Positions 12,053-61,064 of a stretch of 64,000 nt of DNA are shown in pieces. The stretch is from the NCBI GenBank assembly GCA_964343975.1, contig CAYFLU010000002.1, forward strand, positions 7,082 to 71,081. The letters are read 5' to 3'. Source of the stretch: an uncultured Solibacteraceae bacterium (GTDB lineage Bacteria; Acidobacteriota; Vicinamibacteria; Vicinamibacterales; SCN-69-37). Position 1 is the first letter of the stretch; every line of letters begins with the position of its first letter. The notes beneath the pieces were generated by a model. The model was not told the DNA's origin. It saw nothing but the letters and a program-made list of their open reading frames with translations, and ran no database searches. Both the position numbers and the translations under genes were made by a program.

Positions 12053-12080
12053 CGATGATCGTGCGTGCGAGGGCCGTGGC

Positions 12081-41714: not shown

Positions 41715-41723
41715 AGTGTAGCG

Positions 41724-42749
41724 ATGAGTGATCCGACCTTCACGGCCTTGCGCCGCCACGTCGATGATCAGGCGCGGCGGCAGCGCTTGCTCGACATCGA
41801 GTCGAGTCTGACGGAACACGACTTCCCGCCGCAGTTGGTGATCGAGAACACGTCGTACTGCAACATGACGTGCGTGCACTGCTGCCACAAGGAAATGCAG
41901 CGGCCGCAGCGGCACATGGAGGAGGCGCTGTGGCGCAAGATCGTCGACGAGATCGGCCGGGAGGCGCCCGATTGCGAGGTGTGGCCGACGTTCTACGGGG
42001 AAGCCTTCATCCTCGGTGACCGGCTCTGGGAGCGGCTCGACTACGCCGCCAAGGCCGGGTGCCGGAATCTCGTGCTGAATTCGAACGGGACCCTGTTGAA
42101 CCGCAACGAGAACATCGACAAGGTGTTGGCCTCACCGTTGCGTCGCTTCATTCTCAGTCTCGACGGCTTCACGAAAGAGACGTTCGAGAAGATTCGTGTC
42201 AAAGGAAAGCACGAACTGATCTTTCCGGCCGTGGAAGAACTCTGCCGGCGTCGTCTTGAACGCGGCCAGACCTACCCGGTGGTGATCACCCAGTTCTCGG
42301 TGATGAAGGAGAACGCGGCCGAGGCCGCGGAGTTCGCCGAGTTCTGGCGCGAACGCGGCGCCGAGGTGAAGTTCCGCCCGATGCTCGAGTGGACGGCGAG
42401 TGGCTCGGTGCGCACGGACACGATTTCGCATGACACCGATTTCCGCATCGCGTGTCCTTGGGCCAGCAGCACCATGGCCGTGCATCAGGATGGCTCGGTC
42501 GTGGCGTGCGCCGTCGACTACGACGGACACGTCAAGGTGGCGAATCTCAACGAGGTCTCGATCCGAGAGGCGTGGCGTCGGTTGGGCGAGGTGATCCGCC
42601 GTCCGCACCGCGAGCATCGGTGGGCCGACCTGCCCGCCCTCTGTCAGGGATGTGGTGATTGGCAGTCGGCCGGCTCCAGCTACGACGACGAGCAGGTCAG
42701 CAACACGCGCCCGTTCTGGTACTACGAGGAGCGGCAGAACCGGACATGA
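41724..42749 (+). CDS. Radical SAM protein with a SPASM/twitch-type C-terminal Cys-rich domain
   Basis: The cluster motif is ENTSYCNMTCVHCCHK (CX3CX2C). C-terminal Cys motifs are CPWASSTMAVHQDGSVVACAVDYDG and LCQGCGDW. Confidence 0.8.
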   Translation: MSDPTFTALRRHVDDQARRQRLLDIESSLTEHDFPPQLVIENTSYCNMTCVHCCHKEMQRPQRHMEEALWRKIVDEIGREAPDCEVWPTFYGEAFILGDRLWERLDYAAKAGCRNLVLNSNGTLLNRNENIDKVLASPLRRFILSLDGFTKETFEKIRVKGKHELIFPAVEELCRRRLERGQTYPVVITQFSVMKENAAEAAEFAEFWRERGAEVKFRPMLEWTASGSVRTDTISHDTDFRIACPWASSTMAVHQDGSVVACAVDYDGHVKVANLNEVSIREAWRRLGEVIRRPHREHRWADLPALCQGCGDWQSAGSSYDDEQVSNTRPFWYYEERQNRT

Positions 42750-43681
42750 TCCCGTTTGCGCAGGCCACGCTGACCGTTGTCACTCCGGTGTATCGCAATG
42801 CGCGCACGCTGGAGGAGCTGACGCGTCAGGTGTTCGAGGTGGCGGGACCGCGGTTCGCGTCCGTCGAATACATCTTCGTGAACGACGGTTCACCGGATGA
42901 CTCGCGCCAGGTGCTCCGGCGGATGGCCGACGCGGATCGCCGCGTGAAGGTGATCAACTTCGCACGGAACTTCGGCCAGCACACGGCGCTGATGGCGGGG
43001 ATGCGGGCGGCGGCGGGCGACTACATTCTCATGATCGATGGCGATCTCGAAGAGTCGCCGTCTGACCTGCCCGCGTTCATGGCCAAGATGTCCGAAGGAT
43101 TCGAGATCGTGGTGGGCGAGCGCCTCAATCGTCGACGCACGTGGCTGCGCGCGACGCTGAGCCGGACGTACACCGCGCTCTTCAACGCGCTGTCGGATTA
43201 CAAGATCATCGACAACACGACGGACATGCGCCTGATGACGCGGCGCTACGTGTCGTACCTCACCAGCTTCAGCGAGCGGCCGTTTCTCGCGGGTATCACG
43301 GCGTGGGTGGGGTTGCCGGTGGGGCTCATTCCCGTGACGTTCCGTGAACGCACCGAGTCGAGCTACAACTTTCGCCGGTTGATCCAGCATGCGCGGGTCG
43401 GTGTGTTGGGATTTTCCAATCGGCCGATTCGGCTGGCGATGGCGTTCGGGCTGGCGTTGTGCGGTTCATCGGCGGCCTACGGTCTCTACGTGATGGCCCT
43501 GCATTTCCTGCGCGGGGGCATCGCGGCGGGCTTCACCACCATCGTGGTGCTGTTTGCGTTCCTGCTCGGGGCCCAGTTCGTATTCATCGGGTTGCTCGGC
43601 GAGTACATCGGCGAGATCTTCATCGCGACAAAGCAGCGGCCCAGCCACCTCATCTACGATCGATTCGGATTCGACGACTAA
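42746..43681 (+). CDS. GT2 polyprenyl-phosphate glycosyltransferase (ArnC/GtrB/DPM1-like) with two C-terminal TM helices
   Basis: ATG 42746 forms an ATGA junction. Motifs are LTVVTPVYRNA, YIFVNDGSPDDS, NFGQHTALMAGM, and ILMIDGDLEESP. The tail is hydrophobic (LAMAFGLALCGSSAAYGLYV and TTIVVLFAFLLGAQFVFIGLLGEYIG). Confidence 0.8.
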   Translation: MIPFAQATLTVVTPVYRNARTLEELTRQVFEVAGPRFASVEYIFVNDGSPDDSRQVLRRMADADRRVKVINFARNFGQHTALMAGMRAAAGDYILMIDGDLEESPSDLPAFMAKMSEGFEIVVGERLNRRRTWLRATLSRTYTALFNALSDYKIIDNTTDMRLMTRRYVSYLTSFSERPFLAGITAWVGLPVGLIPVTFRERTESSYNFRRLIQHARVGVLGFSNRPIRLAMAFGLALCGSSAAYGLYVMALHFLRGGIAAGFTTIVVLFAFLLGAQFVFIGLLGEYIGEIFIATKQRPSHLIYDRFGFDD

Positions 43682-43684
43682 GTC

Positions 43685-45526
43685 ATGTGTGGGATTGCCG
43701 GATATACCGGGCCCGTGCGCCCGGGGCGCATCGAGGCCATGACCGCGGCGATGACGCATCGCGGCCCTGACGATGACGGGTTCTTCGAGGGCGAGCGGGT
43801 GCATCTCGGGATGCGTCGTCTCTCGATCGTGGATCTCGCCACCGGCAAGCAACCGAAGCACAGCGCGCACGGCGCGGTGACGCTGGTGTTCAACGGCGAG
43901 ATCTACAACTACGTGGAACTGCGCCGCGAACTGGAAGCGCGCGGTCACGTCTTTGAAAGCCGGTCGTCGGACACCGAGGTGATCGCGGTCCTCTACGAGG
44001 AGTACGGGCCGGCGTTTGTGGATCACATGGTCGGCATGTTCGCGATCGCGTTGTATGACGCTCGGATCGACGAACTGTGGCTCGTGCGCGATCGCCTCGG
44101 GAAGAAGCCGATTTACTACCGGCACGATCCGGTCACCGGCCAATTGGAGTTTGCGAGTGAGTTCCCCGTGATCGCCCTCGACGATCTGGCGGCGCATATC
44201 GACCGCGGATCTCTGGCGTGGTACTTCAGCCAGAAGGCCATGCCGGCGGAGGGGACGATCGACGATCGCGTGCGCAAGGTGCCGCCTGGGGCGATGCTGC
44301 GCTGCCGTCTCGGAGACGGGACGGTTCGGATCGAACGGTACTGGCACGGCCCGGCGCTGCCGCGCACGCAGCCGCTCGAGACGGACGAGGGGCGTGCGGT
44401 GGATCAGATCGAGTCGCTGCTCACCGAGGCCGTGCGTCTGCGGATGCGCGCCGACGTGGAGGTCGGCGCATTTCTCAGTGGCGGCATTGATTCCAGCCTG
44501 GTCGTCGCACTCGCATCACGCTGCACCGACAAGCCGCTCAAGACCTATTGCCTGACCTACGAACAGGCGATCAATGAAAAGGCGACGGATCGGGCGATGT
44601 CGCGGCGGGTCGCCGAGCGCTATGGGACCGACCATCGGGAAGTGCTGCTGACGCCCGACGGGCTGATCTCGGCGCTCCCCGACATCGTGGCGCACTACGG
44701 GCAGCCGAACTCGGCGGTCATCTCGAACTGGTTCATCTCGCGCGAGATGGGCAAGGTATTCAAGGTCGCCCTGAGTGGCGATGGCGCCGACGAGTTGTTT
44801 GGCTCGTATTTCCTGCACCGGACGGCCGCCGCGCTCGAAGCGTACCGCCGCACGCGACGCGAGGACGTGCTCGCGGGCCTGCCGGCGGCCGAAGCGGCCT
44901 TCGTGCGCGACGCGGCAGGAGAGTCGTTCGCCGAGGTCCTCGACCGCTTTGCGGTGTTCCGCGATGCCGAGATCGCCCAACTGATGGCCCCGCAGGGCAT
45001 TCGCCCCGGAGAAATCTTGGCCCTGCTCGACGCGCGGGCCGCCCAACTGACCTGCGACGATCCGCTGGATCGGATGCTCGAGTTCGACTGCCAGAACCTG
45101 TTGGTCGATCAGATCCTGAACTACTCGGATACGTTGTCGATGGCGCATTCTCTGGAAGTGCGGACGCCGTTTCTTGACCACCGCCTCGTCGAGTACGTCT
45201 TCACGCTCTCACCGCGATTGAAGATCAAGGACGGCGTCACGAAGTCCCTCTTGAAACAGGTGGCCTTGCGCCACCTGCCGCCTGAACTCGTGCATCGCCG
45301 GAAGGAGGGCTTTGTCGAGCCGGCCGTGTACTGGATCGCCGACGAGATGAAGGACTTCTGCCTGAGCTATCTGGAGTCGCCGACGTTCAACCGGCTGGGC
45401 CTGCTGGACCGCGCCTACGTTCGCACGGTGGTGGATCGGTTCTACCGCGACCGCGCTTTCGACGTGGGGAAGAAGGTCTGGAATCTGTTGATGTTTGCCC
45501 TGTGGGAGCGCAGCCTGCCGGCCTGA
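43685..45526 (+). CDS. asnB: Asparagine synthase (glutamine-hydrolysing) family amidotransferase, copy 1
   Basis: The N-terminal MCGIAG is the Ntn-glutaminase nucleophile. The PP-loop is FLSGGIDSS. It is 613 aa. Confidence 0.85.
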   Translation: MCGIAGYTGPVRPGRIEAMTAAMTHRGPDDDGFFEGERVHLGMRRLSIVDLATGKQPKHSAHGAVTLVFNGEIYNYVELRRELEARGHVFESRSSDTEVIAVLYEEYGPAFVDHMVGMFAIALYDARIDELWLVRDRLGKKPIYYRHDPVTGQLEFASEFPVIALDDLAAHIDRGSLAWYFSQKAMPAEGTIDDRVRKVPPGAMLRCRLGDGTVRIERYWHGPALPRTQPLETDEGRAVDQIESLLTEAVRLRMRADVEVGAFLSGGIDSSLVVALASRCTDKPLKTYCLTYEQAINEKATDRAMSRRVAERYGTDHREVLLTPDGLISALPDIVAHYGQPNSAVISNWFISREMGKVFKVALSGDGADELFGSYFLHRTAAALEAYRRTRREDVLAGLPAAEAAFVRDAAGESFAEVLDRFAVFRDAEIAQLMAPQGIRPGEILALLDARAAQLTCDDPLDRMLEFDCQNLLVDQILNYSDTLSMAHSLEVRTPFLDHRLVEYVFTLSPRLKIKDGVTKSLLKQVALRHLPPELVHRRKEGFVEPAVYWIADEMKDFCLSYLESPTFNRLGLLDRAYVRTVVDRFYRDRAFDVGKKVWNLLMFALWERSLPA

Positions 45527-45553
45527 TTGCCAGATCGGCCTCCGGGGCGTACG

Positions 45554-45970
45554 ATGGTTCTACCGATGTCGCATGTGGTCTTTTATGACGGGCTCTGCGG
45601 GTTCTGCAGCCGGGTGACGCAGTTCATCCTGGCCCGCGACCGGCACGACCGTTTCCGGTTCGCGCAACTGCAGGGGCAGTTTGCGAGCGATACGCTCCGT
45701 CCGCGCGGGTTCGATCCCACCGACCTCGACACCATGTACGTGCTAACTGCGGATGGGCGCGTACTGTCGAAAGCCCGCGCCGCGCTGTTCATCGGACGTG
45801 CACTGGGCGGGTGGCTGGGGGGCGTGTCGCGCGGGCTGTCCCTGTTGCCTTCAGGCCTCCTGAATTGGGGCTACGACCGCGTGGCGCATTCCCGCTATCA
45901 GCTGTTCGGCAAGGTCGACATGTGTCTCCTGCCGTCCGAGAGCGAGCGGCGCAAGTTCATCGTGGGCTGA
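45554..45970 (+). CDS. DCC-family thiol-disulfide oxidoreductase (DUF393)
   Basis: VVFYDGLCGFCSRVTQFILARDRHDRFRFAQLQ carries the C-x-x-C motif. The start is uncertain: TTG 45527, ATG 45554 or ATG 45566. Confidence 0.7.
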   Translation: MVLPMSHVVFYDGLCGFCSRVTQFILARDRHDRFRFAQLQGQFASDTLRPRGFDPTDLDTMYVLTADGRVLSKARAALFIGRALGGWLGGVSRGLSLLPSGLLNWGYDRVAHSRYQLFGKVDMCLLPSESERRKFIVG

Positions 45971-45976
45971 GCGCTG

Positions 45977-46534
45977 ATGCGGCTGCTTGTATATGGTTCG
46001 AAAGACTTCAGCCGCGTGATCCGGGTCTTGGCCGCCGACTGCGGACATGAGGTGGTCGGGTGCATCGATGACTTCGCGGCAGGGCCGGAGATCCTCGGGA
46101 CGTTTGCCGAGACGCGTACCGTGATGCCTCCGGCCGCCGATCTCGGTGTGGTCATCGCCATCGGCTACGAACATATTCCCGCACGCTGGCAGGTGTTCGA
46201 GCGGGTGCGCGAGGCCGGCTATCAGACGCCGGCGCTGGTGCATCCCTCGGCGCTCGTGCACCGGTTGGCGCAGATTGGGGACGGTGCCTTCGTCATGGCC
46301 GGAGCGAACATCGATCTCGGCGCGACGATCGGGCCGCTTGCGGTGGTGTGGCCTGGTGTCATCGTGAGCCACGAATCCCACGTCGGCGCCAACACGTTCC
46401 TGTCACCGGGGGCCATTCTCTGTGGTCTCGTGTCGGTCGGCGAGGGGGCCTTCGTGGGAGCGGGCGCCGTCGTGGCGGATCATCGCACCGTGCCGGCCGG
46501 CACGTTCATCAGAGCGGCACACCTCTACAAGTGA
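45977..46534 (+). CDS. NeuD/PglD-family hexapeptide-repeat sugar acyltransferase
   Basis: The N-terminus is a Rossmann-like MRLLVYGSKDFSRVIRVLAADCGHEVVGCIDD. The C-terminus is a left-handed beta-helix with hexapeptide repeats (IGDGAFVMAGANI, IGPLAVVWPGVIV, VGANTFLSPGAIL, VGEGAFVGAGAVV). Confidence 0.75.
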   Translation: MRLLVYGSKDFSRVIRVLAADCGHEVVGCIDDFAAGPEILGTFAETRTVMPPAADLGVVIAIGYEHIPARWQVFERVREAGYQTPALVHPSALVHRLAQIGDGAFVMAGANIDLGATIGPLAVVWPGVIVSHESHVGANTFLSPGAILCGLVSVGEGAFVGAGAVVADHRTVPAGTFIRAAHLYK

Positions 46535-47322
46535 CCTCACTGCGACTGGACGCTTGGTCCACGGACATGCTCCGTGCGGCGCGGAACGCGAGCGATCGAC
46601 TGGGCGTCGTGATTCCGGTCGGCGCGGTCGAGCAGCACGGCGCGCACCTGCCCGTCACCTGCGACACCGACATCGCGGTGGGCGCGGCCGCCGCGGTGTC
46701 CGACGCGCTGGAGCAGACGGGGCGGTATCGAGCCTGGGTCGCGCCGGCCATTCCTTACGGACCAGTGCCGGGAGCCGACCTCACGCCTGGGACATCGGCC
46801 GTCAGTTTCGACGTGCTGGGCGCCTACCTGTCGGCGGTCGTCGACGGATTCGCCGTGACGCGGCAGTGGGACTTCCTCGTCATGGTCAACGCGCACGCGC
46901 ACAACCACGGCCGCGTCATCGAAGCGTCGAGTCGTGCCTTTACGGCACATCGGGTGCCCGCGATCGTTCTGCAGGTCTACGAGTTCATGTCGGTGTGCGA
47001 TGGACTCGATCTGGTGCCGGGATCGCACGGGGCGGAGTTCGAGATCGCGCTGCACCACTTTTACACCGGCGCCTCTCCCATCCCCGGCCGTGTTCCCGAT
47101 GTCACGCCGCGGCCACGGCCGGCGTCGATCTACGGATTGGATCTGCTCCCGCGATCGCGCGGCGGCATCATCGGCCCCAACGTGCCGGATGTCGATCGCG
47201 CACGCCGGGCGGCGCCGGACGTGGGCCGGCGGATCAATGCCGCGATGGCGGCGCGCGCGATCGGCGACCTCGACACCTTCGAGGCGCACTGGCGGGAATC
47301 GCAGGACCGGGAGGCGCGGTGA
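46531..47322 (+). CDS. Creatininase-fold amidohydrolase family protein
   Basis: GTG 46531 forms a GTGA junction. VVIPVGAVEQHGAHLP is the family metal motif, followed by MVNAHAHN. Confidence 0.7.
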   Translation: MTSLRLDAWSTDMLRAARNASDRLGVVIPVGAVEQHGAHLPVTCDTDIAVGAAAAVSDALEQTGRYRAWVAPAIPYGPVPGADLTPGTSAVSFDVLGAYLSAVVDGFAVTRQWDFLVMVNAHAHNHGRVIEASSRAFTAHRVPAIVLQVYEFMSVCDGLDLVPGSHGAEFEIALHHFYTGASPIPGRVPDVTPRPRPASIYGLDLLPRSRGGIIGPNVPDVDRARRAAPDVGRRINAAMAARAIGDLDTFEAHWRESQDREAR

Positions 47323-48014
47323 ACGTCGCTGTGCTGCAGTCGAACTATCTGCCGTGGCGCGGGTACTTCGACATCATTCACGACGTCGACACGTTCGTGT
47401 TCTATGACGACGTGCAGTACACCGTGAATGACTGGCGCAATCGCAATCGGATCAAGACCGCAAACGGTCCGGTGTGGCTCACGATTCCGGTGGGCAATCA
47501 AAATGACCGGCGGATCTGCGACGTGGAATTGCGCGACCCGAGCTGGGCGCGCAAGCACTGGCGCACCATTGAACAGGCGTACGGGCGCGCGCCGCATTTC
47601 GCGGTGGTCGCGCCCTTTCTGCGCGACCTGTATGCGCAACCATGGACGTCGCTCTCCGCACTGAACCAGTACGCGATCACGACCATCGCGCGCGAGTTCC
47701 TCGGCATCCGCACGACGTTTCGTGATTCCCGCGAGTTCCCGCTCGATGGACAGAAGGGCGACCGGTTGCTCGACCTGTTGCGGCAGGTGGGGGCGACCGA
47801 CTACGTGAGCGGGCCGTCGGCCCAAGCCTATCTCGACGTGGCGGCGTACGCCGATGCCGGGATTCGCGTGCGCTGGAAGGACTACAGCGACTATCCGACG
47901 TATCCCCAAATGCACGGCGACTTCCTGCCGGCCGTCTCGATCATCGATGTGCTCGTGCAGTGCGGGCCGGGGGCGGCAGAGGTGATCTGGGGCCATCGGG
48001 AGCGTGTGTCATGA
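47319..48014 (+). CDS. WbqC-family protein
   Basis: GTG 47319 forms a GTGA junction. VAVLQSNYLPWRGYFDIIHDVDTFVFYDDVQYTVNDWRNRNRI and WLTIPV are the WbqC-like N-terminal signature. Confidence 0.7.
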   Translation: MNVAVLQSNYLPWRGYFDIIHDVDTFVFYDDVQYTVNDWRNRNRIKTANGPVWLTIPVGNQNDRRICDVELRDPSWARKHWRTIEQAYGRAPHFAVVAPFLRDLYAQPWTSLSALNQYAITTIAREFLGIRTTFRDSREFPLDGQKGDRLLDLLRQVGATDYVSGPSAQAYLDVAAYADAGIRVRWKDYSDYPTYPQMHGDFLPAVSIIDVLVQCGPGAAEVIWGHRERVS

Positions 48015-48841
48015 CGATCGATATTCGCGCGTGGACCGATGCGCTTGAGCAGGATGCACACGGCATCTGGCGCGCGCCATCGGCGCGAGCGGTGTCGTAT
48101 CCCGAACACGACAATGCGGTGTGTTTTCAGATCGAGGATGGATCGCCCTGGTTTCGTCACCGGAATGAGTGCTTGGTGACCATGCTGAAGCGCTTTCCAC
48201 CCGGCGGGCCCATCGTCGAGATTGGCGCGGGCAACGGCTTTGTGGCTCGGCGTTTCATCGACGAGGGGTGCCCGACCGCGGTTCTCGAGCCCGGCCCGGA
48301 CGGCGCACAGAATGCGCGTGACGGGCGCGGCATTCCCGATGTCATCTGTGCGACGCTGCAGGACGCGGGGTTTCGCTCGGGCGTGCTGCCGGCGGTCGGT
48401 CTGTTCGACGTGCTCGAGCACATTGAAGATGATCGCGGCGTGGTGGACGAACTGGCGCGCGTTCTTCGGCCAGGCGGTCGTGTGTATCTGACCGTGCCGT
48501 CGCCGCCATGGCTGTATTCCATCAAGGATGTGGACGCTCAGCACTACCGGCGCTACAGCATCGATCAGCTGACGTCGCTCTTCGGCGATCGGTTTGCGGT
48601 CGACTACGCGACGTATTTCTTCGCCGCGCTGACGCTGCCGACCTTGCTCCTCCGTGCCGTGCCGTACCGGCTGGGATTGGCGCGACCGCGAACGTCTGAA
48701 CAGTACGCCGCAGAACACGAGCGGGGACAGCAAGCCGGCGGGTGGTTGACCCGGCTGTTCGATGCGGAACTTCAGAAGATTCGGGCCGGACGCGTGCTCA
48801 GGTACGGCACCAGCCTGTTGTTCGTCGCCCGGCGACGCTAA
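48011..48841 (+). CDS. Class I SAM-dependent methyltransferase
   Basis: ATG 48011 forms an ATGA junction. Motifs are IVEIGAGNGFVARRF, VGLFDVLEHIEDD, and LRPGGRVYLTVP. Confidence 0.75.
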   Translation: MTIDIRAWTDALEQDAHGIWRAPSARAVSYPEHDNAVCFQIEDGSPWFRHRNECLVTMLKRFPPGGPIVEIGAGNGFVARRFIDEGCPTAVLEPGPDGAQNARDGRGIPDVICATLQDAGFRSGVLPAVGLFDVLEHIEDDRGVVDELARVLRPGGRVYLTVPSPPWLYSIKDVDAQHYRRYSIDQLTSLFGDRFAVDYATYFFAALTLPTLLLRAVPYRLGLARPRTSEQYAAEHERGQQAGGWLTRLFDAELQKIRAGRVLRYGTSLLFVARRR

Positions 48842-49725
48842 CGTCCGAGCTGTTCTCTCACGCGCGGGAATGTGGCCCGCGCGCCCGCCGCGGTTCGCGC
48901 CGACTCGATGCGGATCATCCCTGATCCGCAGATCACCTCGGGCCGGCCCTCGTCGAGTCGCCAGATCTTTCCCGCGTGCCGCTCTTCGAACCGGAGGTCA
49001 GCAATGACTTCGACGGTATCGACGATGATGGGGTCGCCACCGTAGGTCGTGCGCGCGCCTTCGTACGGCCAGCCCACCGCATCCACGAACCGTCGCACCC
49101 TCTCCGCCGGCCACGACCAGTCGATCGCATAGTCGTGCGGACCGCGCCACACGCTGTACGTGGCGCGTGACTCATCCTGAGGGACCGCGCTGTCGATCAG
49201 TCGTCCACGGCCCACCAACGCCAGCACCTGGCGTCCCGCTTCGGTGTAGCACCCGGCGAGTCGCTGATAGGCCTCACGAATGGTGATCGGGTACGTGATG
49301 CTGGCTGGCGCCTGCGCGTACACGGGGCCCGCGTCAAACGCTTCAACCGGACGGAACGCTGTGACGCCAATCGTCGTTCGGCCGGCGATCAGTGCCGTGG
49401 CGGTGGGCGCAAAACCACGGACCTCGGGCAGCAGAGAATCGTGGAACACCACCAGACGCTCGAGCGCCGCGGCGATCAGGTACTGCCAGCCGGCGACGAA
49501 CACGTGATCGGCGTGGGCCAGTTGCGCCTCGTCGATCGCCTCGCGTTCGACGAACGCGTAGCCATGCGTCCGGCAGAACTCGCGAACCAGCCGATACGCG
49601 TCCACCTGCAGGCCCCGTACTGGATGCGATGAGACAAAGGCCACGTCGCAATCGCGATGGAGTCCTTCGAGCAGACTGAATCCCTTGGGGCCCGAGACGA
49701 GGAAGCCGATGCGGGGACGGCTCAT
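48838..49725 (-). CDS. Formyltransferase (Fmt/ArnA-N-terminal/sugar N-formyltransferase type) with a C-terminal Fmt-like domain
   Basis: The motif is VVFHDSLLPEVRGFAPTATALIAG, followed by IGVTAFRPVEAFDAGPV. Its start overlaps the upstream minus-strand gene by ATGA. Confidence 0.75.
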   Translation of the reverse strand: MSRPRIGFLVSGPKGFSLLEGLHRDCDVAFVSSHPVRGLQVDAYRLVREFCRTHGYAFVEREAIDEAQLAHADHVFVAGWQYLIAAALERLVVFHDSLLPEVRGFAPTATALIAGRTTIGVTAFRPVEAFDAGPVYAQAPASITYPITIREAYQRLAGCYTEAGRQVLALVGRGRLIDSAVPQDESRATYSVWRGPHDYAIDWSWPAERVRRFVDAVGWPYEGARTTYGGDPIIVDTVEVIADLRFEERHAGKIWRLDEGRPEVICGSGMIRIESARTAAGARATFPRVREQLGR

Positions 49726-50693
49726 GCGCGTTCTTCCGTCGTCGCCGACGCGCCGGGTCGCGTGGTGTCGGTGATGAAGTAGAGCGGCCGCTTCTTGGTT
49801 TCGTTGAAGACCTTGCCGAGGTACAACCCGTTCAAGCCGAGAATCACGATGATGAGGCCCGCCAGAAAGTACAGCGACACGATCAGACTGGTCCAGCCCA
49901 GCACCGGCGATCCGAAGAAGACGACTTTCGTGAGGAACCAGAGACCGGCGAGCACGGCGAGTCCCGCGACGACGAACCCGAACCGGATGGCCAGCCGCAG
50001 GGGTTTGTCGCTGTAGGCCACGATGGTATCGACGCCCAACTTGAGCAACTTCCTGTAGGTGTACGTACTGCGTCCGTGCGTGCGGGCGTCATGCCGCACC
50101 TCGATGGCCGCGGTGCGGAATCCGGTCCAATCAACCAGAGCGGCGAAGAACCGCAACTGTTCGCGCAAGGCACACACGGCGTTGACGACCTTCCGGGACA
50201 TGATGCGGAAGTTCCGCACGCGTCCGTCGAATCGGACATCGGTCAGATAGCTGAACGCCTGATAAAAGCCCCAGGAAATGGCGCGTTTCAGCGGCGGATC
50301 CGCGCGTTCGGCGCGCAAGGCCAGCACGATGTCGAAGCCGTCGAGTGCCTTGCGGTACAACGCCGGAATGCCTTCCGGCGGGTCCTGCAGGTCGCAGTCC
50401 ATGACGACGACCCAGCGGCCCACGCTCGCATCGAGTCCAGCGGTAATGGCGTAGTGCTGACCGAAATTCCGGCTGAGCTGCAGCCCCACGACACGCGGGT
50501 CGCGCGCGCTGAGCGCCCGGATCATCTCCCACGACCGGTCTCCGCCGCCGTCTTCGACGAGCACCAGCTCGTAGTGGGCGGTGAGTGGGCTCAGGGCAGC
50601 CGTCAGCCGCGTATAGAGCTCGTCGAGACAGGCCTCCGCCCGATACACCGGAACGACGACGGAAATGTCTGGGACGCGCGGGTCGCTGGCCAC
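49722..50693 (-). CDS. ArnC-like GT2 polyprenyl-phosphate (formamido/amino)sugar transferase
   Basis: Motifs are ISVVVPVYRAEACL, YELVLVEDGGGDRS, SRNFGQHYAITAGL, and VVMDCDLQDPPE. It has two C-terminal TM helices. The start is GTG at 50693. Confidence 0.8.
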   Translation of the reverse strand: MASDPRVPDISVVVPVYRAEACLDELYTRLTAALSPLTAHYELVLVEDGGGDRSWEMIRALSARDPRVVGLQLSRNFGQHYAITAGLDASVGRWVVVMDCDLQDPPEGIPALYRKALDGFDIVLALRAERADPPLKRAISWGFYQAFSYLTDVRFDGRVRNFRIMSRKVVNAVCALREQLRFFAALVDWTGFRTAAIEVRHDARTHGRSTYTYRKLLKLGVDTIVAYSDKPLRLAIRFGFVVAGLAVLAGLWFLTKVVFFGSPVLGWTSLIVSLYFLAGLIIVILGLNGLYLGKVFNETKKRPLYFITDTTRPGASATTEERA

Positions 50694-50732
50694 GGTTCGC
50701 AGGCCCGATTATGGCATGTAAGATAAGTGACA
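50694..50732. promoter_or_regulatory. Short divergent intergenic region with a local AT-rich patch and back-to-back -10-like hexamers
   Basis: The sequence is gttcgcaggcccGATTATGgcatgTAAGATaagtgaca. TAAGAT lies at 50719-50724 on the plus strand, 8 nt before ATG 50733. CATAAT lies on the minus strand at 50708-50713, 14 nt before GTG 50693. This is the only strand-switch region with room for promoters. Confidence 0.25.
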
Positions 50733-51866
50733 ATGCAGCGAAACCCTGTGCCGTTCAATCGCCCCTCGCTGGCGGGCGCGGAGTTCGAGTACATGAAGGC
50801 CGCCATCGACGCCATGCAGATCTCGGGCAATGGTCCGTTCGGTCGTCGGTGTGAGCAAGCGCTCGAGGCCGCGATTGGTGCGCCGAAGGCGCTGTTGACG
50901 ACCTCCTGCACGCACGCGATCGAGATGGCGGCGATGTTGCTCGACCTGCAGCCGGGCGATGAGGTGATCGTGCCGGCCTTCACGTTCGTCACGACCGTCA
51001 CGCCGTTCGTGCTGCGTGGCGCCACGCCGGTGTTCGTCGATGTCCGCCCGGATACGCTGAATCTCGACGAGCGTCTGGTGGCCGCGGCGATCACGCCGCG
51101 GACGCGCGCCATCGTGCCCGTGCACTATGCCGGTGTGGGATGCGAAATGGACGCGCTGCTCGACATCGCCCGCACGCACGGCCTGCGGGTGATCGAAGAC
51201 AACGCGCATGGATTGTTCGGGGCCTACAAGGGGCGGCCGCTCGGCAGTCTCGGCGCCGCCTCGACGCTGTCCTTCCACGAAACGAAGAATTTCACGTGTG
51301 GCGAGGGCGGTGCGCTCGTCATCAATGAGCCGGCGTGGATTGAGCGCGCCGAGATCTTGCGCGAAAAGGGGACGGATCGCAGCCGGTTCTTTCGCGGGCA
51401 AGTCGACAAATACACATGGGTCGACATCGGCTCGAGCTATGTGCCGTCGGAGATTCTCGCGGCGTTCCTGCTCGCGCAACTGGAAGCGCGTGACGCGATC
51501 CAGGCCACGCGCGCCCGGCTGTGGCACACCTACAACGACGCGCTGGCAGGGTGGTGCGAATCCTCGGGTGTTCGTCGACCGTTCATTCCGGCTCACTGTG
51601 ATCAGTCGTTCCACATGTTCTACCTGCTGTTTCCGTCGCTCGAGGACCGTCAGTGGGCCATTGTCCAGTTGAAGGCGCACGGCGTACAGGCCGTCTTTCA
51701 CTATCAGGCGCTCCATTTGTCGGACATGGGGCAGAAGTTCGGTGGACGGCCGGGGCAGTGTCCGGTGACCGAAGGCCTCGCCGACCGGCTGCTGCGTCTG
51801 CCGTTCTACAACGCGTTGACGGCCGACCAACAGGCGCACGTGATCGAGGCTGTGCAGGCCTGTTGA
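50733..51866 (+). CDS. wecE: dTDP-4-amino-4,6-dideoxygalactose transaminase (WecE/RffA type; DegT/DnrJ/EryC1 family)
   Basis: It is near-collinear with my memory of E. coli WecE. Shared segments include VPFNRP...EFEYM, PGDEVIVPAFTFV, VFVDVRPDTLN, IVPVHYAGVGCEMD, LSFHETKNFTCGEGGAL, EKGTDRSRFFRGQVDKYTWVDIGSSY, and HMFYLLFP. GTG 50727 is an alternative start. Confidence 0.85.
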   Translation: MQRNPVPFNRPSLAGAEFEYMKAAIDAMQISGNGPFGRRCEQALEAAIGAPKALLTTSCTHAIEMAAMLLDLQPGDEVIVPAFTFVTTVTPFVLRGATPVFVDVRPDTLNLDERLVAAAITPRTRAIVPVHYAGVGCEMDALLDIARTHGLRVIEDNAHGLFGAYKGRPLGSLGAASTLSFHETKNFTCGEGGALVINEPAWIERAEILREKGTDRSRFFRGQVDKYTWVDIGSSYVPSEILAAFLLAQLEARDAIQATRARLWHTYNDALAGWCESSGVRRPFIPAHCDQSFHMFYLLFPSLEDRQWAIVQLKAHGVQAVFHYQALHLSDMGQKFGGRPGQCPVTEGLADRLLRLPFYNALTADQQAHVIEAVQAC

Positions 51867-53128
51867 TGACATCGGCCGTGCCGCGTCGAGGGCGTCTCGA
51901 CCTGTGGGGGCTGTTTGCGGGCGCGCTAGCGGTTCGTGTCCTGGCCGCGCTCGTGCTCGACGGCTATCGCCATCCGGGACTGAACGAATACGAGGACATC
52001 GCGCGAAGCGTGGTGGCGGGGACGGGGTACCGCTTCTACCATCTCGGCGTCTGGTACTACTCGTTTGCGGCGCCGCTCTTCGGTGGGATCTGCGCCGCCA
52101 TCTACTGGCTGGGCGGGACGGTCGGCACGGTCGTCGCGCTGCAGGGCATCGTGAGTGCGGCCCATGCGGTTCTGATCGCGGTCATGGCCGAGCGGCTGTT
52201 CGCATCGCGCCGCGCCGGTTGGCTGGCCGGGGCTTTGATGGCCGTCCATCCGGGATTGACGGTCTACGCGTCAGGAAAAGCGCACGATCTGACGTTCGAT
52301 GCGCTCTTCTTCACACTCATTCTTTTCTTCTGTTGGCGGCTGCACGAGCGTCCGACCGTCGGTCGCGCGATCGCCGCGGGGGTCATCGTCGGGATCGGCG
52401 CCCATTCGCGTGGCACTGCGGTCGTGTTCCTGCCGGTGGCCGCGGTGTGGATGCTGTGGTGTCATCGCCACGGGGCGTGGCGGCACTACCTCGCACGCAT
52501 GGTGGTGGCGGGGCTCTGTGCGGTGGCGGTCATCACGCCCTGGGCGACGCGCAATATCCGCATCCACCACGCGTTCGTGTGGATGCTGACGACCGACGGC
52601 GAAAGCCTGTGGGACGGCAACAACCCGAATGCGACCGGGCATTCGTATGCGAGGCCGGATCAGTTGGTGCTCGACCTGCTGCCGCCGGCGGCCTACAAGG
52701 AAATGCGCTCGCAGCCGAATGAGTTGGCGCAGTCGCGGTGGTTCACCGACCAGGCGCTGTCCTTCGTCCGCGAGCATCCCGGGTGGGCCGCCAAGCTCTA
52801 TGCGATGAAGTTCTACGCGTTCTGGTGGTTCAGTCCGCAGATCGGAACACTCTACGCGCGGAGCTGGTTGCTGGCCTACCAAGCGTTCTATGCCGGCGTA
52901 CTCGTGCTCGCCGCTCTGGGCGTGCGGTCGGTGATCGTCGGCGGCACGCCCGCCCGGCGGCAGGAGCTGGTGCTGCTCGGATTGTTCCTGCTGGCGCTAT
53001 CGGCGTTGCAAAGCGCGTACTACGTCGAGGGGCGGCATCGGTGGGCCATCGAGCCGTTGCTCCTGATCGTTGCCGGAGGTGGCGCGGCGTGGTGGTGGGA
53101 TGCGATGCGAAGGCGTTCGTCGTCGTGA
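51866..53128 (+). CDS. GT-C family membrane glycosyltransferase (ArnT/PMT_2-like)
   Basis: ATG 51866 forms a TGATG junction. The first-loop motif is GLNEYEDIARSVVAGTGY. It has more than ten hydrophobic segments. Confidence 0.65.
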   Translation: MTSAVPRRGRLDLWGLFAGALAVRVLAALVLDGYRHPGLNEYEDIARSVVAGTGYRFYHLGVWYYSFAAPLFGGICAAIYWLGGTVGTVVALQGIVSAAHAVLIAVMAERLFASRRAGWLAGALMAVHPGLTVYASGKAHDLTFDALFFTLILFFCWRLHERPTVGRAIAAGVIVGIGAHSRGTAVVFLPVAAVWMLWCHRHGAWRHYLARMVVAGLCAVAVITPWATRNIRIHHAFVWMLTTDGESLWDGNNPNATGHSYARPDQLVLDLLPPAAYKEMRSQPNELAQSRWFTDQALSFVREHPGWAAKLYAMKFYAFWWFSPQIGTLYARSWLLAYQAFYAGVLVLAALGVRSVIVGGTPARRQELVLLGLFLLALSALQSAYYVEGRHRWAIEPLLLIVAGGGAAWWWDAMRRRSSS

Positions 53129-54309
53129 GTGACCGCGCGGCGCGGCCGGGCGTGCTGATGGTGACTGGCGCGTACGACCCCGAGATGAGCGGCGCGGGCT
53201 TGCAGTGTCGCCAGCTGATCCGTGAGATCCGGTCCGCCGTCGACTGCGGTGTACTGACCACCGTGACCGATCCGTCGCTGCCGCTGGATGACGAACGCGA
53301 CGGAATTCCCGTGTGGCGTGTGCCCGTGGATCCGTCGCGGTTTTCATCCAAGGTGCGCGCCGCGTGGCGGATGTGCCGGATTCTGTGGCGGACACGGCGC
53401 CGGTTCCACATCCTGCACTTCCACGGGTTCTCGCAAAAGACCGTTCTGGCCATTGTGATCGGCCGCTGCCTCGGCAAAGCCATCGTGATCAAGCTCACGT
53501 CGGTCGGTCACGATGATCCGATGTCGATGCGGGCGCGCGGCGCGCTGGCGAACTGGTGCTATCGCCAGGCGACGATGTTCTTCGGTGTGAGCCCGCGGTT
53601 CGCGGAGCTGTATCGCGAGGCGGGACTGCCACCGCAGCGGTTCTGCCTCATTCCGAATGGCGTGGATCTGGCGCGGTTCTCGCCGGCCTCGTCAGACGCG
53701 AGATCCGCACTCCGGGCGCGCGTCGGCGTGCCGCGGCACGCGTGGGTCACGTTGTTTGTCGGTTTCTTTTCCCACGAGAAATGTCCCGACGTGTTGTTTG
53801 AGGCGTGGCTGCCGATGGCGCAACGAGACCCCCATCAGGTGCTCGTGCTGGTCGGCGCGACCCGGTCGGCCTATTACGAGGTCGATCCGGCACTGGCTGA
53901 CGGCATTCGAAGCCGCGCCGCGGATGCCGGTGTGGGCGACCGGGTGATCTGGGTCGAGCGCACGGCGTGCATTGAGGACTATCACCGGGCCGCCGATGTC
54001 TTCGTGTTGCCGTCCACCCGTGAAGGTCTCCCGAACGCCTTGCTCGAGGCGATGGCGTGTGGCACGGCGTGTGTCGCCACGCGACTGCCCGGCGTCACCG
54101 ATCGTCTCATCGACGACGGCCGAGAGGGGCGCCTCGTGCCCCCGCGCGATGTCGCGGCGCTGGCCGACGCGTTGACCGCGTTGGCGGCGGATGCCGAGAC
54201 GGCGCGCGCGTGGGGCATGCGTGCGCGCGCACGGGTGGCGCAGGAGTTCAGCGCGAAGGCCATGGGCGCGGCGTATGTCGCGGCCTATGCGCGTGTGGTG
54301 ACGCACTGA
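53125..54309 (+). CDS. GT-B glycosyltransferase (GT4)
   Basis: GTG 53125 forms a GTGA junction. ATG 53158 is an alternative start. The C-terminal motif is PSTREGLPNALLEAMACGTACVATRLPGVTDRLIDDGREGRLV. Confidence 0.8.
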   Translation: MSDRAARPGVLMVTGAYDPEMSGAGLQCRQLIREIRSAVDCGVLTTVTDPSLPLDDERDGIPVWRVPVDPSRFSSKVRAAWRMCRILWRTRRRFHILHFHGFSQKTVLAIVIGRCLGKAIVIKLTSVGHDDPMSMRARGALANWCYRQATMFFGVSPRFAELYREAGLPPQRFCLIPNGVDLARFSPASSDARSALRARVGVPRHAWVTLFVGFFSHEKCPDVLFEAWLPMAQRDPHQVLVLVGATRSAYYEVDPALADGIRSRAADAGVGDRVIWVERTACIEDYHRAADVFVLPSTREGLPNALLEAMACGTACVATRLPGVTDRLIDDGREGRLVPPRDVAALADALTALAADAETARAWGMRARARVAQEFSAKAMGAAYVAAYARVVTH

Positions 54310-56150
54310 TGTGCGGCATTGCCGGCCTCGCGCACTTTGATGGCACCGTGCCGGACGAGGCGCTGGTGTCGCGCATGTGCGATGCGTTGCGACATCGCGG
54401 GCCTGATGACGCCGGGGTGGTGGTCTCGACGGGGAGCGCGTCGGGCGGCGCGGCGGCGTTGGGCAATCGCCGGCTGAGCATTGTCGACGTGGCGGGCGGA
54501 CACCAGCCGATCAGCAACGAGACCGGCGAGATCTGGACCGTCCTCAATGGCGAGATTTACAACCATGCCGAGTTGCGGACGCGGCTGGAGGGACTCGGAC
54601 ATCGATTCGCCACGCGCGCCGACACGGAAGTGATCGTGCACGCCTACGAGCAGTACGGCGAGGCGTGTGTGCAGCACCTCGACGGGATGTTCGCGTTCGC
54701 GATCTGGGATCGCCGGGCGGAGCGGTTGTTGCTTGCGCGTGACCGGTTCGGCAAGAAGCCGCTCTGCTATTGGGCCCACGGGGCCCGCCTGGCCTTCGCC
54801 TCGGAATTGCAGAGTCTGCTGTGCGTCCCCGGGATTGCACGCGACCTCGACGGCATCGCGCTCGGCGACTACCTCGCGTACATGGCCATTCCGGCGCCGC
54901 GGACGATCTACCGGCATGTCAAGAAGTTGCCGCCGGCGCATGTGCTCACCGCCGACCGACGCGGGATCGAGGTCCGTCGGTACTGGCAGCTGCGCTTCGC
55001 GCCGAAGGTGCGCATCAGCGAGACGGAGGCCGTCGAGGAGATTCGCACACGTCTGGCGGCGGCGGTCGATCGTCGCCTGATGAGTGAGGTGCCGCTGGGC
55101 GCGTTCTTGAGTGGCGGCGTCGATTCAAGTGCGGTGGTCGCCATGATGGCGCGCCATGGACGGAATGTGCGGACGTTCTCGATCGGATTTGAAGAGGCGG
55201 CGTACGATGAACTGCCGTATGCCCGTCGCGTGGCGGCGCACTTCGGATGCACGCACGAAGAGTTCGTCGTGCGACCGGATGCGGTCGAGATCCTGCCGAG
55301 ATTGATCCGTCATTTTGGCGAGCCGTTTGCCGATTCGTCCGCGATTCCCACGGCGTATCTGGCCGCGCGCACCAGAGTCCATGTGGCCGTGGCCTTGAGC
55401 GGCGATGGCGGTGACGAGATCTTTGCCGGCTACGGGCGGCATCGCGCGAACTGGCTGGCGGAGCAGCGGTCGGTCCGGCTCCTGGCCGTCCTGGCGCGAC
55501 GCGCTGGAGTCTCCGGGCGGTCGCGGGCCGGGCGCTTTCTCAACGCCGCAGCGGTGGATCGCGCGGACCGGTATCAACGTTGGGCCGGCGTCTGCACGCC
55601 GGACCTGATTCGCGCCATGGCGCCGCCGGCCGCCGACGGTCAAGCGGCGGTGCGGGCCGCGTACGCGGAGGCGGCCGCGCTCGATGCCGTGGATGCCATG
55701 CTGTCGGTGGACACGAACGTGTATCTGCCCACGGATCTGCTCGTGAAGATGGACATCACCACGATGGCGGCGTCACTCGAAGCGCGTTCGCCGTTGCTGG
55801 ACACCGCGCTCGCCGAGTTCGTGGCGTCGTTGCCGTCCGACCTGAAGTTGCGCCGGGGACGCACCAAACACCTGTTGAAGGCGGCCATGGCAGGCCTGCT
55901 CCCCGACGACATCCTCGATCGACGGAAACGCGGGTTCGCGGTGCCCATTGGCGCGTGGCTGCGCGGACCGCTTTACGACTTCGCCGCGGCGCATCTCGAG
56001 TCGTCCGCGGCGGCAGCGGGTGGGTGGCTACACCAGCCGGCACTGACGGCGCTGCTGGCCGAGCATCGCACGGGCGCGCGGGACCATGCGCACCAGCTTT
56101 GGGCCCTCTTGGTGCTCGAACTTTGGTACCGTACGTCGGTAGCGGTATGA
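54309..56150 (+). CDS. asnB: Asparagine synthase (glutamine-hydrolysing) family amidotransferase, copy 2
   Basis: ATG 54309 forms a TGATG junction. It has the MCGIAG nucleophile and the FLSGGVDSS PP-loop. It is 613 aa, the same length as copy 1. Confidence 0.85.
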   Translation: MCGIAGLAHFDGTVPDEALVSRMCDALRHRGPDDAGVVVSTGSASGGAAALGNRRLSIVDVAGGHQPISNETGEIWTVLNGEIYNHAELRTRLEGLGHRFATRADTEVIVHAYEQYGEACVQHLDGMFAFAIWDRRAERLLLARDRFGKKPLCYWAHGARLAFASELQSLLCVPGIARDLDGIALGDYLAYMAIPAPRTIYRHVKKLPPAHVLTADRRGIEVRRYWQLRFAPKVRISETEAVEEIRTRLAAAVDRRLMSEVPLGAFLSGGVDSSAVVAMMARHGRNVRTFSIGFEEAAYDELPYARRVAAHFGCTHEEFVVRPDAVEILPRLIRHFGEPFADSSAIPTAYLAARTRVHVAVALSGDGGDEIFAGYGRHRANWLAEQRSVRLLAVLARRAGVSGRSRAGRFLNAAAVDRADRYQRWAGVCTPDLIRAMAPPAADGQAAVRAAYAEAAALDAVDAMLSVDTNVYLPTDLLVKMDITTMAASLEARSPLLDTALAEFVASLPSDLKLRRGRTKHLLKAAMAGLLPDDILDRRKRGFAVPIGAWLRGPLYDFAAAHLESSAAAAGGWLHQPALTALLAEHRTGARDHAHQLWALLVLELWYRTSVAV

Positions 56151-61056: not shown

Positions 61057-61064
61057 TACGGACC

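Follow-up and report, generated by a model that had tools for sequence, protein, structure and literature searches.

A putative lipid-linked shuttle for a dTDP-derived formamido-dideoxyhexose in an uncultured Solibacteraceae bacterium

We analysed a 64,000-nt stretch of DNA from an uncultured Solibacteraceae bacterium (the whole stretch is called the window below, and all coordinates count from its first letter). Our favoured reading, in which our confidence is somewhat better than even, is that the genes at 48011-53128 form a Gtr/Arn-like shuttle for a deoxythymidine diphosphate (dTDP)-derived 4-formamido-4,6-dideoxyhexose whose formyl group is retained, and that the genes for a hexapeptide transferase, a creatininase-fold protein and a WbqC-family protein beside them are separate from it. 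The sugar is most likely of the 4-amino-4-deoxyfucose (Fuc4N) type. Polymyxin resistance (Arn), serotype conversion (Gtr) and the tailoring of Gram-positive cell-wall glycans all depend on decorating surface glycans in the periplasm with monosaccharides carried on polyprenyl phosphate. If our reading is correct, this lipid-linked monosaccharide logic extends to dTDP-derived formamido-dideoxyhexoses.

The cassette and its proposed mechanism

The cassette contains two divergent gene pairs. On the minus strand, a polyprenyl-phosphate glycosyltransferase of family 2 and GtrB/ArnC/DPMS type (GT2, also labelled GT2b; 49722-50693; 323 aa), recognised by alignment to GtrB and ArnC sequences from the PDB, is followed by a formyltransferase-fold protein (FT; 48838-49725; 295 aa) with the Pfam domains Formyl_trans_N and Formyl_trans_C, and 4 nt are shared between the GT2 stop and the FT start. 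On the plus strand, a WecE-type dTDP-4-keto-6-deoxyhexose 4-aminotransferase of the DegT family (AT; 50727-51866; 379 aa), assigned with the NCBIfam WecE models, precedes a short PMT_2-family glycosyltransferase of the GT-C fold (GT-C; 51866-53128; 420 aa; Pfam PMT_2, 34.1 bits versus a cut-off of 26.1), whose start and the AT stop have 1 nt in common. A divergent intergenic gap of 33 bp (50694-50726) separates the two pairs, comparable to the 42 bp found in the related locus L003. A class I S-adenosylmethionine (SAM) methyltransferase (MT; 48011-48841, plus strand; Pfam Methyltransf_23/11) is convergent with FT, with the stops of the two genes overlapping. An initial annotation of this DNA had described the WecE-type aminotransferase, the sugar formyltransferase, the ArnC-like GT2 and the PMT-like GT-C in a divergent layout. 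All four are intact at the positions given here, and every gene it named holds up; its gene list left out the methyltransferase.

The same annotation had seen in these genes the logic of the Arn pathway, i.e., amination, N-formylation, ArnC/GtrB-type transfer to polyprenyl phosphate and a final GT-C step, and as far as predicted functions go, comparative genomics agrees. We propose the following sequence of events. RmlA and RmlB, presumably with genes elsewhere in the genome, would supply dTDP-4-keto-6-deoxyglucose, from which AT, a clear member of the WecE family, would make the dTDP-4-amino sugar. FT (its catalytic motif is atypical) would then N-formylate the amino sugar with N10-formyl-tetrahydrofolate as donor, and methylation by the adjacent methyltransferase is possible. 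On the cytoplasmic side, GT2 would load the formamido sugar onto polyprenyl phosphate, as suggested by its family and by the tight coupling of its gene to that of FT, after which a flippase would carry the lipid-linked sugar outward; candidates for this step are the GtrA or ArnE/F-like proteins of sister cassettes, with none present in the window. The adjacent PMT_2 GT-C is the simplest candidate for transferring the sugar to a surface glycan, and this acceptor could be built by the products of the neighbouring WecA-like, GT4 and AsnB-like genes. In the Arn precedent, ArnC takes the formylated sugar only (PMC12690121). The deformylation step of Arn would not be needed here.

Recurrence of the cassette across bacteria

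To place the cassette in a wider context, we assembled 80 genomic loci and several metagenomic ones, clustered their open reading frames (ORFs) and obtained 86 non-redundant FT loci. A WecE-like AT accompanies FT in 76 of the 86, and an ArnC-like GT2 does so in 47. RmlB (dTDP-glucose 4,6-dehydratase) is encoded at 39 loci and RmlA (glucose-1-phosphate thymidylyltransferase) at 30, with both identities confirmed above the NCBIfam cut-offs. The family of the window MT, defined as a BLAST cluster, is present at 20 of the 86 loci, usually in the order GT2>FT>MT>AT. GT2 and FT are closely coupled in 35 of the 47 GT2-bearing loci, where the distance from the stop of the former to the start of the latter is -30 to +60 nt and the two genes mostly overlap; four more have the order FT>GT2. 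This coupling spans Cyanobacteria, Bacteroidota, Firmicutes, Proteobacteria, Planctomycetota and other phyla. The cassette GT2s score nearer to GT2b than to the second ArnC-like GT2 of the window, suggesting that they form a distinct clade. A comparison of gene order across relatives, as proposed with the initial annotation, thus finds the FT-AT-GT2 association in many phyla, and since it recurs in dozens of unrelated genomes the co-occurrence of these genes is not due to chance.

The FT loci fall into two classes. Class A has the layout [large multi-transmembrane protein] GT2>FT>(small transmembrane protein)(MT)AT>[large multi-transmembrane protein] and is carried by Crocosphaera, Pantanalinema, Omnitrophota, Bradyrhizobium, Hyphomonas, Pseudomonas fluorescens, Synergistaceae, Flavobacterium, Bacteroides, Chitinophagaceae, Hymenobacter, Ohtaekwangia, Paenibacillus brevis, Sporanaerobium, Planctomycetales, Bryobacterales and others. 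The small transmembrane (TM) proteins beside 43 such cassettes include eight GtrA proteins, seven EamA half-transporters (paired as in ArnE/F) and three SMR proteins, and the large ones include nine PMT_2, two GtrII and one PMT protein; many of the large multi-TM flanking proteins match no Pfam family, so that a GT-C is recognised in only part of the cassettes. In L060, L029, L028, L015 and L062, the flippase-like and GT-C-like genes sit inside the FT-AT cassette, and EamA/SMR-pair or GtrA genes are found in the sister cassettes L060, L029 and L068. Class B loci have no GT2. Here a WecF-like glycosyltransferase comes after FT>AT, accompanied by Wzx-like or Wzm/Wzt genes and RmlA/B. The WecF-like protein (GT56), which adjoins FT-AT in 13 GT2-less loci and matches only TDP-Fuc4NAc:lipid II transferase models, indicates a stable nucleotide-linked donor of the formamido-Fuc4N type. 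Taken together, the comparative results suggest that FT works on the product of the WecE-type enzyme, that the sugar is dTDP-linked, and that about half of the loci hand the product to an ArnC/GtrB-type enzyme in a flippase/GT-C context.

Two further loci have a different composition. In Tardiphaga sp. vice154 (L002; CP041399.1, 4036262-4057215) and Bosea sp. BE125 (L011), FT-AT is accompanied by an LPG_synthase_TM protein that resembles the flippase domain of MprF, and by a GT2, an AsnB-like gene and two large proteins with 7-14 TM helices; GtrA and EamA are missing from both loci, where the LPG_synthase_TM protein might act as the flippase instead.

Identities of the aminotransferase, GT2 and GT-C

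AT passes both NCBIfam WecE models, which bear differing product names (NF008687, 541.3 bits versus a cut-off of 375; TIGR02379, 500.9 versus 434.85), and fails the ArnB model NF008658 (210.6 versus 631). Its best solved relative is E. coli WecE (4PIW; E 8e-127), while ArnB is matched at just 2e-52, and the window has no other DegT-family gene. The dTDP-4-amino-4,6-dideoxyhexose of the initial annotation is thus backed by the WecE scores, by the RmlA/RmlB genes near homologous cassettes and by the WecF-like transferase beside FT-AT elsewhere. Judging from gene content, these WecF-like neighbours at other loci favour the Fuc4N type for the AT product.

Residues 9-309 of GT2 align to residues 27-328 of Synechocystis GtrB (5EKP; E 6e-59), and residues 7-321 align to three ArnC structures (E ~1e-45). 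The sequence reads VVMDCDLQDPPE around the motif DCDLQD, which corresponds to the metal/base motif DxDLQx that defines polyprenyl-phosphate GT2s (PMC12690121), and two hydrophobic TM helices are visible at the C-terminus. GT2 scores below the NCBIfam cut-offs for PgfS (220 bits) and ArnC (NF007986; 176.5 versus 529). By its motif and its full-length similarity, the protein is assigned to the wider polyprenyl-phosphate glycosyltransferase family. The window encodes a second ArnC/PgfS-like GT2 (42746-43681, plus strand), with the motif DGDLEE.

For GT-C, 188 homologues were found, which their sources name 'ArnT-like' or 'GT39', and the first outer loop contains an invariant Glu41. A search of PDB sequences with a profile built from an 11-member GT-C alignment gave no meaningful matches, and the assignment to the GT-C fold comes from an AlphaFold2 (AF2) model (pLDDT 92.5) and from Foldseek, which predict similarity to STT3/OST, ArnT (5F15), PglB, Pmt4, AftB and Emb. 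ArnT, among the top matches, is found at E 5.7e-5 and TMq 0.46, with STT3 equal in score. By plain phmmer, the window GT-C is found in 3 loci; jackhmmer raises this to ~10 ORFs and ties the protein to cassette-flanking proteins of six distant genomes (among them Omnitrophota, Hymenobacter, Ohtaekwangia, Chitinophagaceae and Bryobacterales). At ~61040-62435 (plus strand) lies a third GT-C-like ORF, which has no Pfam match and is related to the PMT_2 GT-C by jackhmmer (E 2e-29 after iteration).

Downstream of GT-C, the block at 53158-59836 (plus strand) encodes a GT4, an AsnB-like amidotransferase, a GT4-DUF218 protein and a WecA/MraY-type phosphoglycosyl transferase fused to CoA_binding_3. The same block is present in L003, L092 and L093 and accompanies the short PMT_2 GT-C even where there is no FT cassette. 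GT-C may therefore be part of a core glycan machinery that uses any locally available lipid-linked sugar.

An atypical formyltransferase family

FT scores 50.1 bits against Formyl_trans_N (cut-off 26.1) and 44.8 bits against Formyl_trans_C. The closest PDB sequence is the formyltransferase domain of ArnA (E 1e-13), followed by Fmt, and superposition of the AF2 model (pLDDT 91) on Fmt and ArnA-FT gives TM-scores of 0.80-0.86. Among the dTDP-sugar N-formyltransferases, only WbkC is found in a sequence search (E 5e-4), and FdtF and QdtF give TM-scores of ~0.7. In keeping with the initial annotation, FT is not an orthologue of Fmt: it reaches 68.6 bits against the fmt equivalog TIGR00460, which has a cut-off of 201.5, and it has a sugar aminotransferase as neighbour at the 76 loci noted above.

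The catalytic motif reads V93-F-H95-D96-S-L-L-P...D131. In the HMMER alignment, His95 and Asp131 of FT correspond to His104 and Asp140 of ArnA, while ArnA Asn102, which we take to be the third member of the canonical Asn-His-Asp triad of Fmt, GART and ArnA, corresponds to Val93. The replacement of Asn is shared by 15 of 15 aligned FT homologues. At this position the family has Val or Ile, rarely Thr, Ala or Met, and the family motif is [V/I]-x-H-D-S-x-L-P-x-x-[R/K]-G, where Asp always follows the His. The folate-site motif SLLPxxRG, His95 and Asp131 are invariant as well. To judge from the alignments, the Val/Ile replacement together with the invariant Asp after the His appears new compared with the characterised sugar N-formyltransferases, and the family is probably active.

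The family is large. FT has 391 matches in a 90%-identity library. Among 1.84 billion representatives, 379 clusters (50% identity) match it at E<=1e-30, and the 150 best-matching cluster representatives were inspected for the motif. Across 185,579 species genomes (one genome per species) there are 267 confirmed relatives, the nearest being just 50% identical to the window FT. A tblastn search of plasmids with FT gave no match. A 644-aa FT 'fusion' (P0287) was discarded; its N-terminus is of low complexity and unlike GT2, and the fusion is likely a gene-calling artefact.

The creatininase-fold protein and the fate of the formyl group

Upstream of the methyltransferase, and on the plus strand like it, are genes for a PglD/NeuD/VioB-like hexapeptide N-acyltransferase (45977-46534; Pfam Hexapep and PglD_N), a creatininase-fold amidohydrolase (46531-47322; PF02633, 87.9 bits versus a cut-off of 31.3) and a WbqC-family protein (47319-48014; PF08889, E 5.5e-79). 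The NeuD-like and WbqC-like genes reported to flank the creatininase gene are thus indeed present. The acyltransferase scores 130.8 bits against the NeuD/PglB/VioB model TIGR03570, below the cut-off of 160.8, and the creatininase gene overlaps both the stop of the hexapeptide gene (GTGA) and the start of the WbqC gene. The creatininase-fold protein stays below the NCBIfam cut-offs for MftE (TIGR03964; 62 versus 172), creatininase (TIGR04448; 54 versus 235) and IolN (NF041098; 39 versus 245), and no ArfB model is among its NCBIfam matches. Against PDB sequences, it gives nothing at E<=1e-3, and no PDB relative was found for the WbqC protein either, nor did the literature on WbqC prove informative.

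The creatininase subfamily is small, with 21 matches. In L088, L089, L090/091 and L094, the creatininase gene lies directly upstream of that for WbqC with overlapping codons, and a PglD-like acyltransferase gene is nearby, even though the protein of L094, from a deltaproteobacterial metagenome-assembled genome, is just 43% identical to that of the window. A radical-SAM/SPASM gene sits between the acyltransferase and creatininase genes in L094 and a few genes upstream of the creatininase gene in L089 and in the window (41724-42749, plus strand; Pfam). L003 has neither the creatininase nor the radical-SAM gene, and this joint loss suggests a joint function of the two. In L089, ~7 kb with genes for an epimerase, an Acyl_transf_3-SGNH protein, an MBOAT protein and a GDSL lipase separate creatininase-WbqC from MT-FT-GT2-AT. 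No creatininase homologue was found near the other FT loci (80-odd loci), and among 131 soluble neighbours of 43 class A cassettes, where GT4, GT2 and methyltransferases are the recurrent Pfam families, no amidohydrolase (polysaccharide deacetylase, YdjC, creatininase or the like) reaches three members. We conclude that the hexapeptide acyltransferase, creatininase and WbqC genes, together with the co-varying radical-SAM/SPASM gene, are a separate conserved sub-module that probably lies outside the shuttle. A creatininase-fold protein alongside a SPASM radical-SAM enzyme, as in this sub-module, recalls MftE/MftC.

In class B loci, the product of FT is fed to a Leloir transferase, so that the formamido sugar is the end product there. 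Because members of the FT family also work in such loci of O-antigen type, next to a WecF-like transferase, the product of the window cassette probably retains its formyl group too. The YdjC family includes NaxD and LgmC, which de-N-acetylate undecaprenyl phosphate (Und-P)-linked GalNAc/GlcNAc in the lipid A pathways of Francisella and Bordetella. Beside FT, L003 encodes a 580-aa fusion (10890-12632, minus strand) of an N-terminal YdjC domain (HpnK/ChbG-like) and a C-terminal Formyl_trans_N domain with canonical N-R-H. This makes a deacylation or acyl-exchange step conceivable in this lineage, and the fusion is a possible deacylase/re-formylase acting on the amino sugar. The complementary distribution of the creatininase gene and the YdjC fusion could reflect analogous roles, with four or five genomes only bearing on the point.

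Weighing the proposed shuttle against other explanations

A number of observations weigh against the shuttle. We know of no polyprenyl-phosphate GT2 with a dTDP-sugar donor, and in the open-access literature we found no characterised example of the cassette, of a lipid-linked formamido-dideoxyhexose or of a dTDP-using ArnC-like enzyme; the structurally characterised polyprenyl-phosphate GT2s use uridine or guanosine diphosphate (UDP or GDP) donors (PMC12690121). RmlA/B, GtrA and an EamA/SMR-pair flippase were looked for in the window, and none is present. Given that the triad Asn is replaced in 86 of 86 locus FTs and in 150 of 150 cluster representatives, down to ~33% identity, formyl transfer is itself a prediction. 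Relatives of the window GT-C at 48% and 33% identity sit in loci without FT-GT2-AT that retain the downstream GT4/AsnB-like/GT4-DUF218/WecA-like block, which means that GT-C may take a different donor, and with two ArnC-like GT2s and three GT-C-like genes in the window the pairing is ambiguous. Finally, nearly half of the FT loci (~39 of 86) have no GT2 and bear WecF-like, Wzx-like or Wzm/Wzt genes instead. This last point, together with the GT-C homologues outside FT cassettes, the three GT4 genes downstream in the window and the fact that the best structural relative of GT2 is the UDP-Glc enzyme GtrB, would suit an arrangement of two independent modules, in which AT and FT make a dTDP-4-formamido sugar for cytoplasmic Leloir transferases (the GT4s of the cluster, acting on an undecaprenyl-diphosphate-linked repeat unit) and GT2 and GT-C are a Gtr-like pair using a UDP-sugar such as glucose, GlcNAc or similar. 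However, independent modules do not sit easily with the overlap or near contact of the GT2 and FT genes in 35 of 47 loci across phyla, with a distinct GT2 clade that travels with FT, or with flippase-like and GT-C-like genes embedded within FT-AT cassettes, and we regard this arrangement as unlikely.

Still less probable, in our view, is that FT is not a formyltransferase at all and instead transfers another one-carbon or acyl unit, acts on an N-methylated amine made by MT, or serves GT2 as a binding or scaffold partner. The motif [VI]-x-H-D-S-x-L-P without a single Asn, the alignment of Val93 to ArnA Asn102, the distance of the family from all characterised dTDP-sugar N-formyltransferases and the recurrence of a methyltransferase in the cassette would fit such a role. 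On the other hand, His95, Asp131 and the folate site are invariant, the overall fold is that of Fmt/ArnA-FT (TM-score up to 0.86), the strong purifying pattern across the family argues for an active enzyme, and an adjoining aminotransferase is the context of known sugar N-formyltransferases. The initial annotation had also put forward the creatininase-fold protein as a non-orthologous replacement for ArnD, which would deformylate polyprenyl-P-Fuc4N-formamide and leave a cationic 4-amino sugar to be flipped and transferred, like 4-amino-4-deoxyarabinose (Ara4N). ArfB, a formamide hydrolase, belongs to the creatininase-fold family. An EQHG metal motif is present in the sequence, JGI homologues carry the name 'creatinine amidohydrolase/Fe(II)-dependent formamide hydrolase-like', and the syntenic L003, which has no creatininase gene, has the YdjC-Formyl_trans_N fusion beside FT. 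Yet the 4-nt overlap with WbqC in 5 of 5 relatives, the PglD-like and radical-SAM/SPASM company kept even at 43% identity and the paired loss in L003 tie the gene to its sub-module, while the unrelated genes in between set it apart from FT-GT2-AT in L089; no creatininase, YdjC or PF01522 protein occurs near any other cassette, and its best family match, albeit a weak one, is the peptidase MftE. We therefore consider the replacement deformylase very unlikely. We give just as little credence to an extended version, in which the cassette, with a Val/Ile-x-His-Asp FT, is the first of ArnC/GtrB type to put a dTDP-derived and possibly methylated 4-formamido-4,6-dideoxyhexose on polyprenyl phosphate, and the creatininase-fold enzyme here and the YdjC-FT fusion in the sister lineage both remove the N-acyl group from the lipid-linked sugar. 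The creatininase-fold enzyme would then be a non-orthologous ArnD/NaxD, and the outcome a cationic 4-amino-6-deoxyhexose decoration like Ara4N. On balance, the shuttle with a retained formyl group is the explanation we prefer.

Genomic setting and other features of the window

The window has a G+C content of ~65%, and the cassette is part of a long glycan-biosynthesis cluster that extends from 38.6 to ~62.4 kb and lies nearly all on the plus strand. The interval 45977-53128 holds eight intact, tightly packed genes, with start and stop codons overlapping at every same-strand junction. Codon bias is uniform across these genes, with a G+C content at third codon positions (GC3) of 0.75-0.85. The ORFs of the creatininase-to-FT segment fell short in a first GC3 filter, which raised the idea that the segment had been acquired horizontally in recent times; with the true gene boundaries, the values are 0.75-0.83, like those of the neighbours, and the idea was rejected.

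At 38694-43681 (plus strand) there is a possible second lipid-linked sugar module. It encodes a 1006-aa protein with a GT87-family membrane domain fused to PD40/Tricorn-like beta-propeller repeats, followed by the radical-SAM/SPASM enzyme and the ArnC/PgfS-like GT2 of 42746-43681. An AsnB-like amidotransferase (43685-45526) comes next, and then a DCC1-like thiol-disulfide oxidoreductase gene within the glycan cluster (45527-45970, plus strand), in place of which L003 has a 479-aa protein with 6 TM helices. A separate upstream glycan island at 2938-26415 (plus strand) encodes a B12-binding radical-SAM enzyme, a MobA-like NTP transferase, NeuB, several GT2 and GT4 enzymes, at least six methyltransferases, an ABC exporter and a PhyH-like dioxygenase; an AAC(3)-like N-acetyltransferase gene in it adjoins that for a DUF4910/DUF2172/HTH_47 protein.

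Significance

If the proposed function is right, an ArnC-type enzyme with a dTDP donor and a formyltransferase lacking the Asn would both be surprising. The cassette is not confined to one metagenomic contig: there are hundreds of FT clusters, and the GT2-FT-AT core is found from Cyanobacteria to Firmicutes and Bacteroidota. Cultivable carriers of compact cassettes that are amenable to genetics include Pseudomonas fluorescens PS655 (L028), Paenibacillus brevis MSJ-6 (L062), Flavobacterium sp. (L034) and Ohtaekwangia koreensis DSM 25262 (L065). The cassette raises the questions of whether a GtrB/ArnC-type enzyme can use a dTDP-sugar, how FT would catalyse formyl transfer without the Asn, and whether N-formylation is a lasting antigenic mark or a transient handle as in Arn.

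Comparison with known systems

FT shares with the known sugar N-formyltransferases (ArnA-FT, WbtJ, VioF, Rv3404c, FdtF, QdtF, WlaRD and WbkC) the Formyl_trans_N fold, a His and an Asp, the SLLPxxRG motif and the adjacency of a DegT-family aminotransferase and RmlA/B. By contrast, it is a two-domain protein of the Fmt/ArnA type with marginal sequence similarity to the dTDP-sugar enzymes. The Fuc4NAc branch of enterobacterial common antigen (WecE, WecD, WecF) is similar in that AT exceeds the WecE cut-offs and GT2-less FT loci have a WecF-like GT56. Here, however, N-formylation by an FT-fold enzyme would take the place of N-acetylation by the GNAT WecD, and in the window the sugar would be routed via the polyprenyl-phosphate GT2 and GT-C and not via WecF.

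In the Francisella FlmF2-NaxD-FlmK and Bordetella LgmA-C systems, an N-acylated amino sugar travels on Und-P with the help of an ArnC-like GT2 and an ArnT-like GT-C, and a YdjC deacylase acts on the lipid-linked sugar. The YdjC domain fused to an FT domain beside the L003 cassette is reminiscent of these systems, but the window has no YdjC gene, and its sugar would be dTDP-linked and formylated rather than a UDP-HexNAc. With the Gtr-type systems (GtrA/GtrB/GtrC, CsbB-GtcA-YfhO, GacI-L and PgfS/PgfM), the cassette has in common the logic of a polyprenyl-phosphate glycosyltransferase, a flippase and a GT-C. GtrB is the best structural match of the window GT2 and PgfS its best NCBIfam match, and GtrA and GtrII proteins are found in sister cassettes. 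Whereas Gtr systems use ready-made UDP-Glc or UDP-GlcNAc, the cassette embeds a set of aminotransferase, formyltransferase and, in part, methyltransferase genes coupled to GT2.

In its predicted mode of action, the cassette comes nearest to these Gtr-type systems and to Arn. The likeness to Arn (ArnB, ArnA, ArnC, ArnD, ArnT and ArnE/F) extends over the predicted route, from a 4-keto sugar nucleotide via a PLP-dependent aminotransferase, a folate-type N-formyltransferase and ArnC-type transfer to a flippase and a GT-C. The gene order arnC-arnA(FT) is mirrored by GT2>FT in the cassette, FT is nearest to the ArnA formyltransferase domain, GT2 aligns to ArnC over its full length, and the EamA pairs of sister cassettes resemble ArnE/F. 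The differences are as clear. The sugar would be a dTDP-6-deoxyhexose in the cassette versus UDP-Ara4N in Arn, and FT lacks both the catalytic Asn and the UDP-GlcA decarboxylase domain of ArnA (NF005998; 75.9 versus 777). The absence from the window of such a domain and of an ArnD-type PF01522 protein, reported in the initial annotation, is borne out by a scan of ~50 ORFs across the 64 kb, and no decarboxylase or short-chain dehydrogenase/reductase gene is adjacent to the cassette. ArnE/F are absent from the window too. GT-C, at 420 aa, is without the periplasmic domain of ArnT, the acceptor need not be lipid A, and a methyltransferase is a frequent extra member of the cassette. None of the window proteins reaches an Arn equivalog cut-off, while the broader families, i.e., the polyprenyl-phosphate GT2s, WecE, the GT-C fold and the formyltransferase fold, are all represented. 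The cassette is best described as a widespread new variant of lipid-linked monosaccharide decoration and not as an Arn system.

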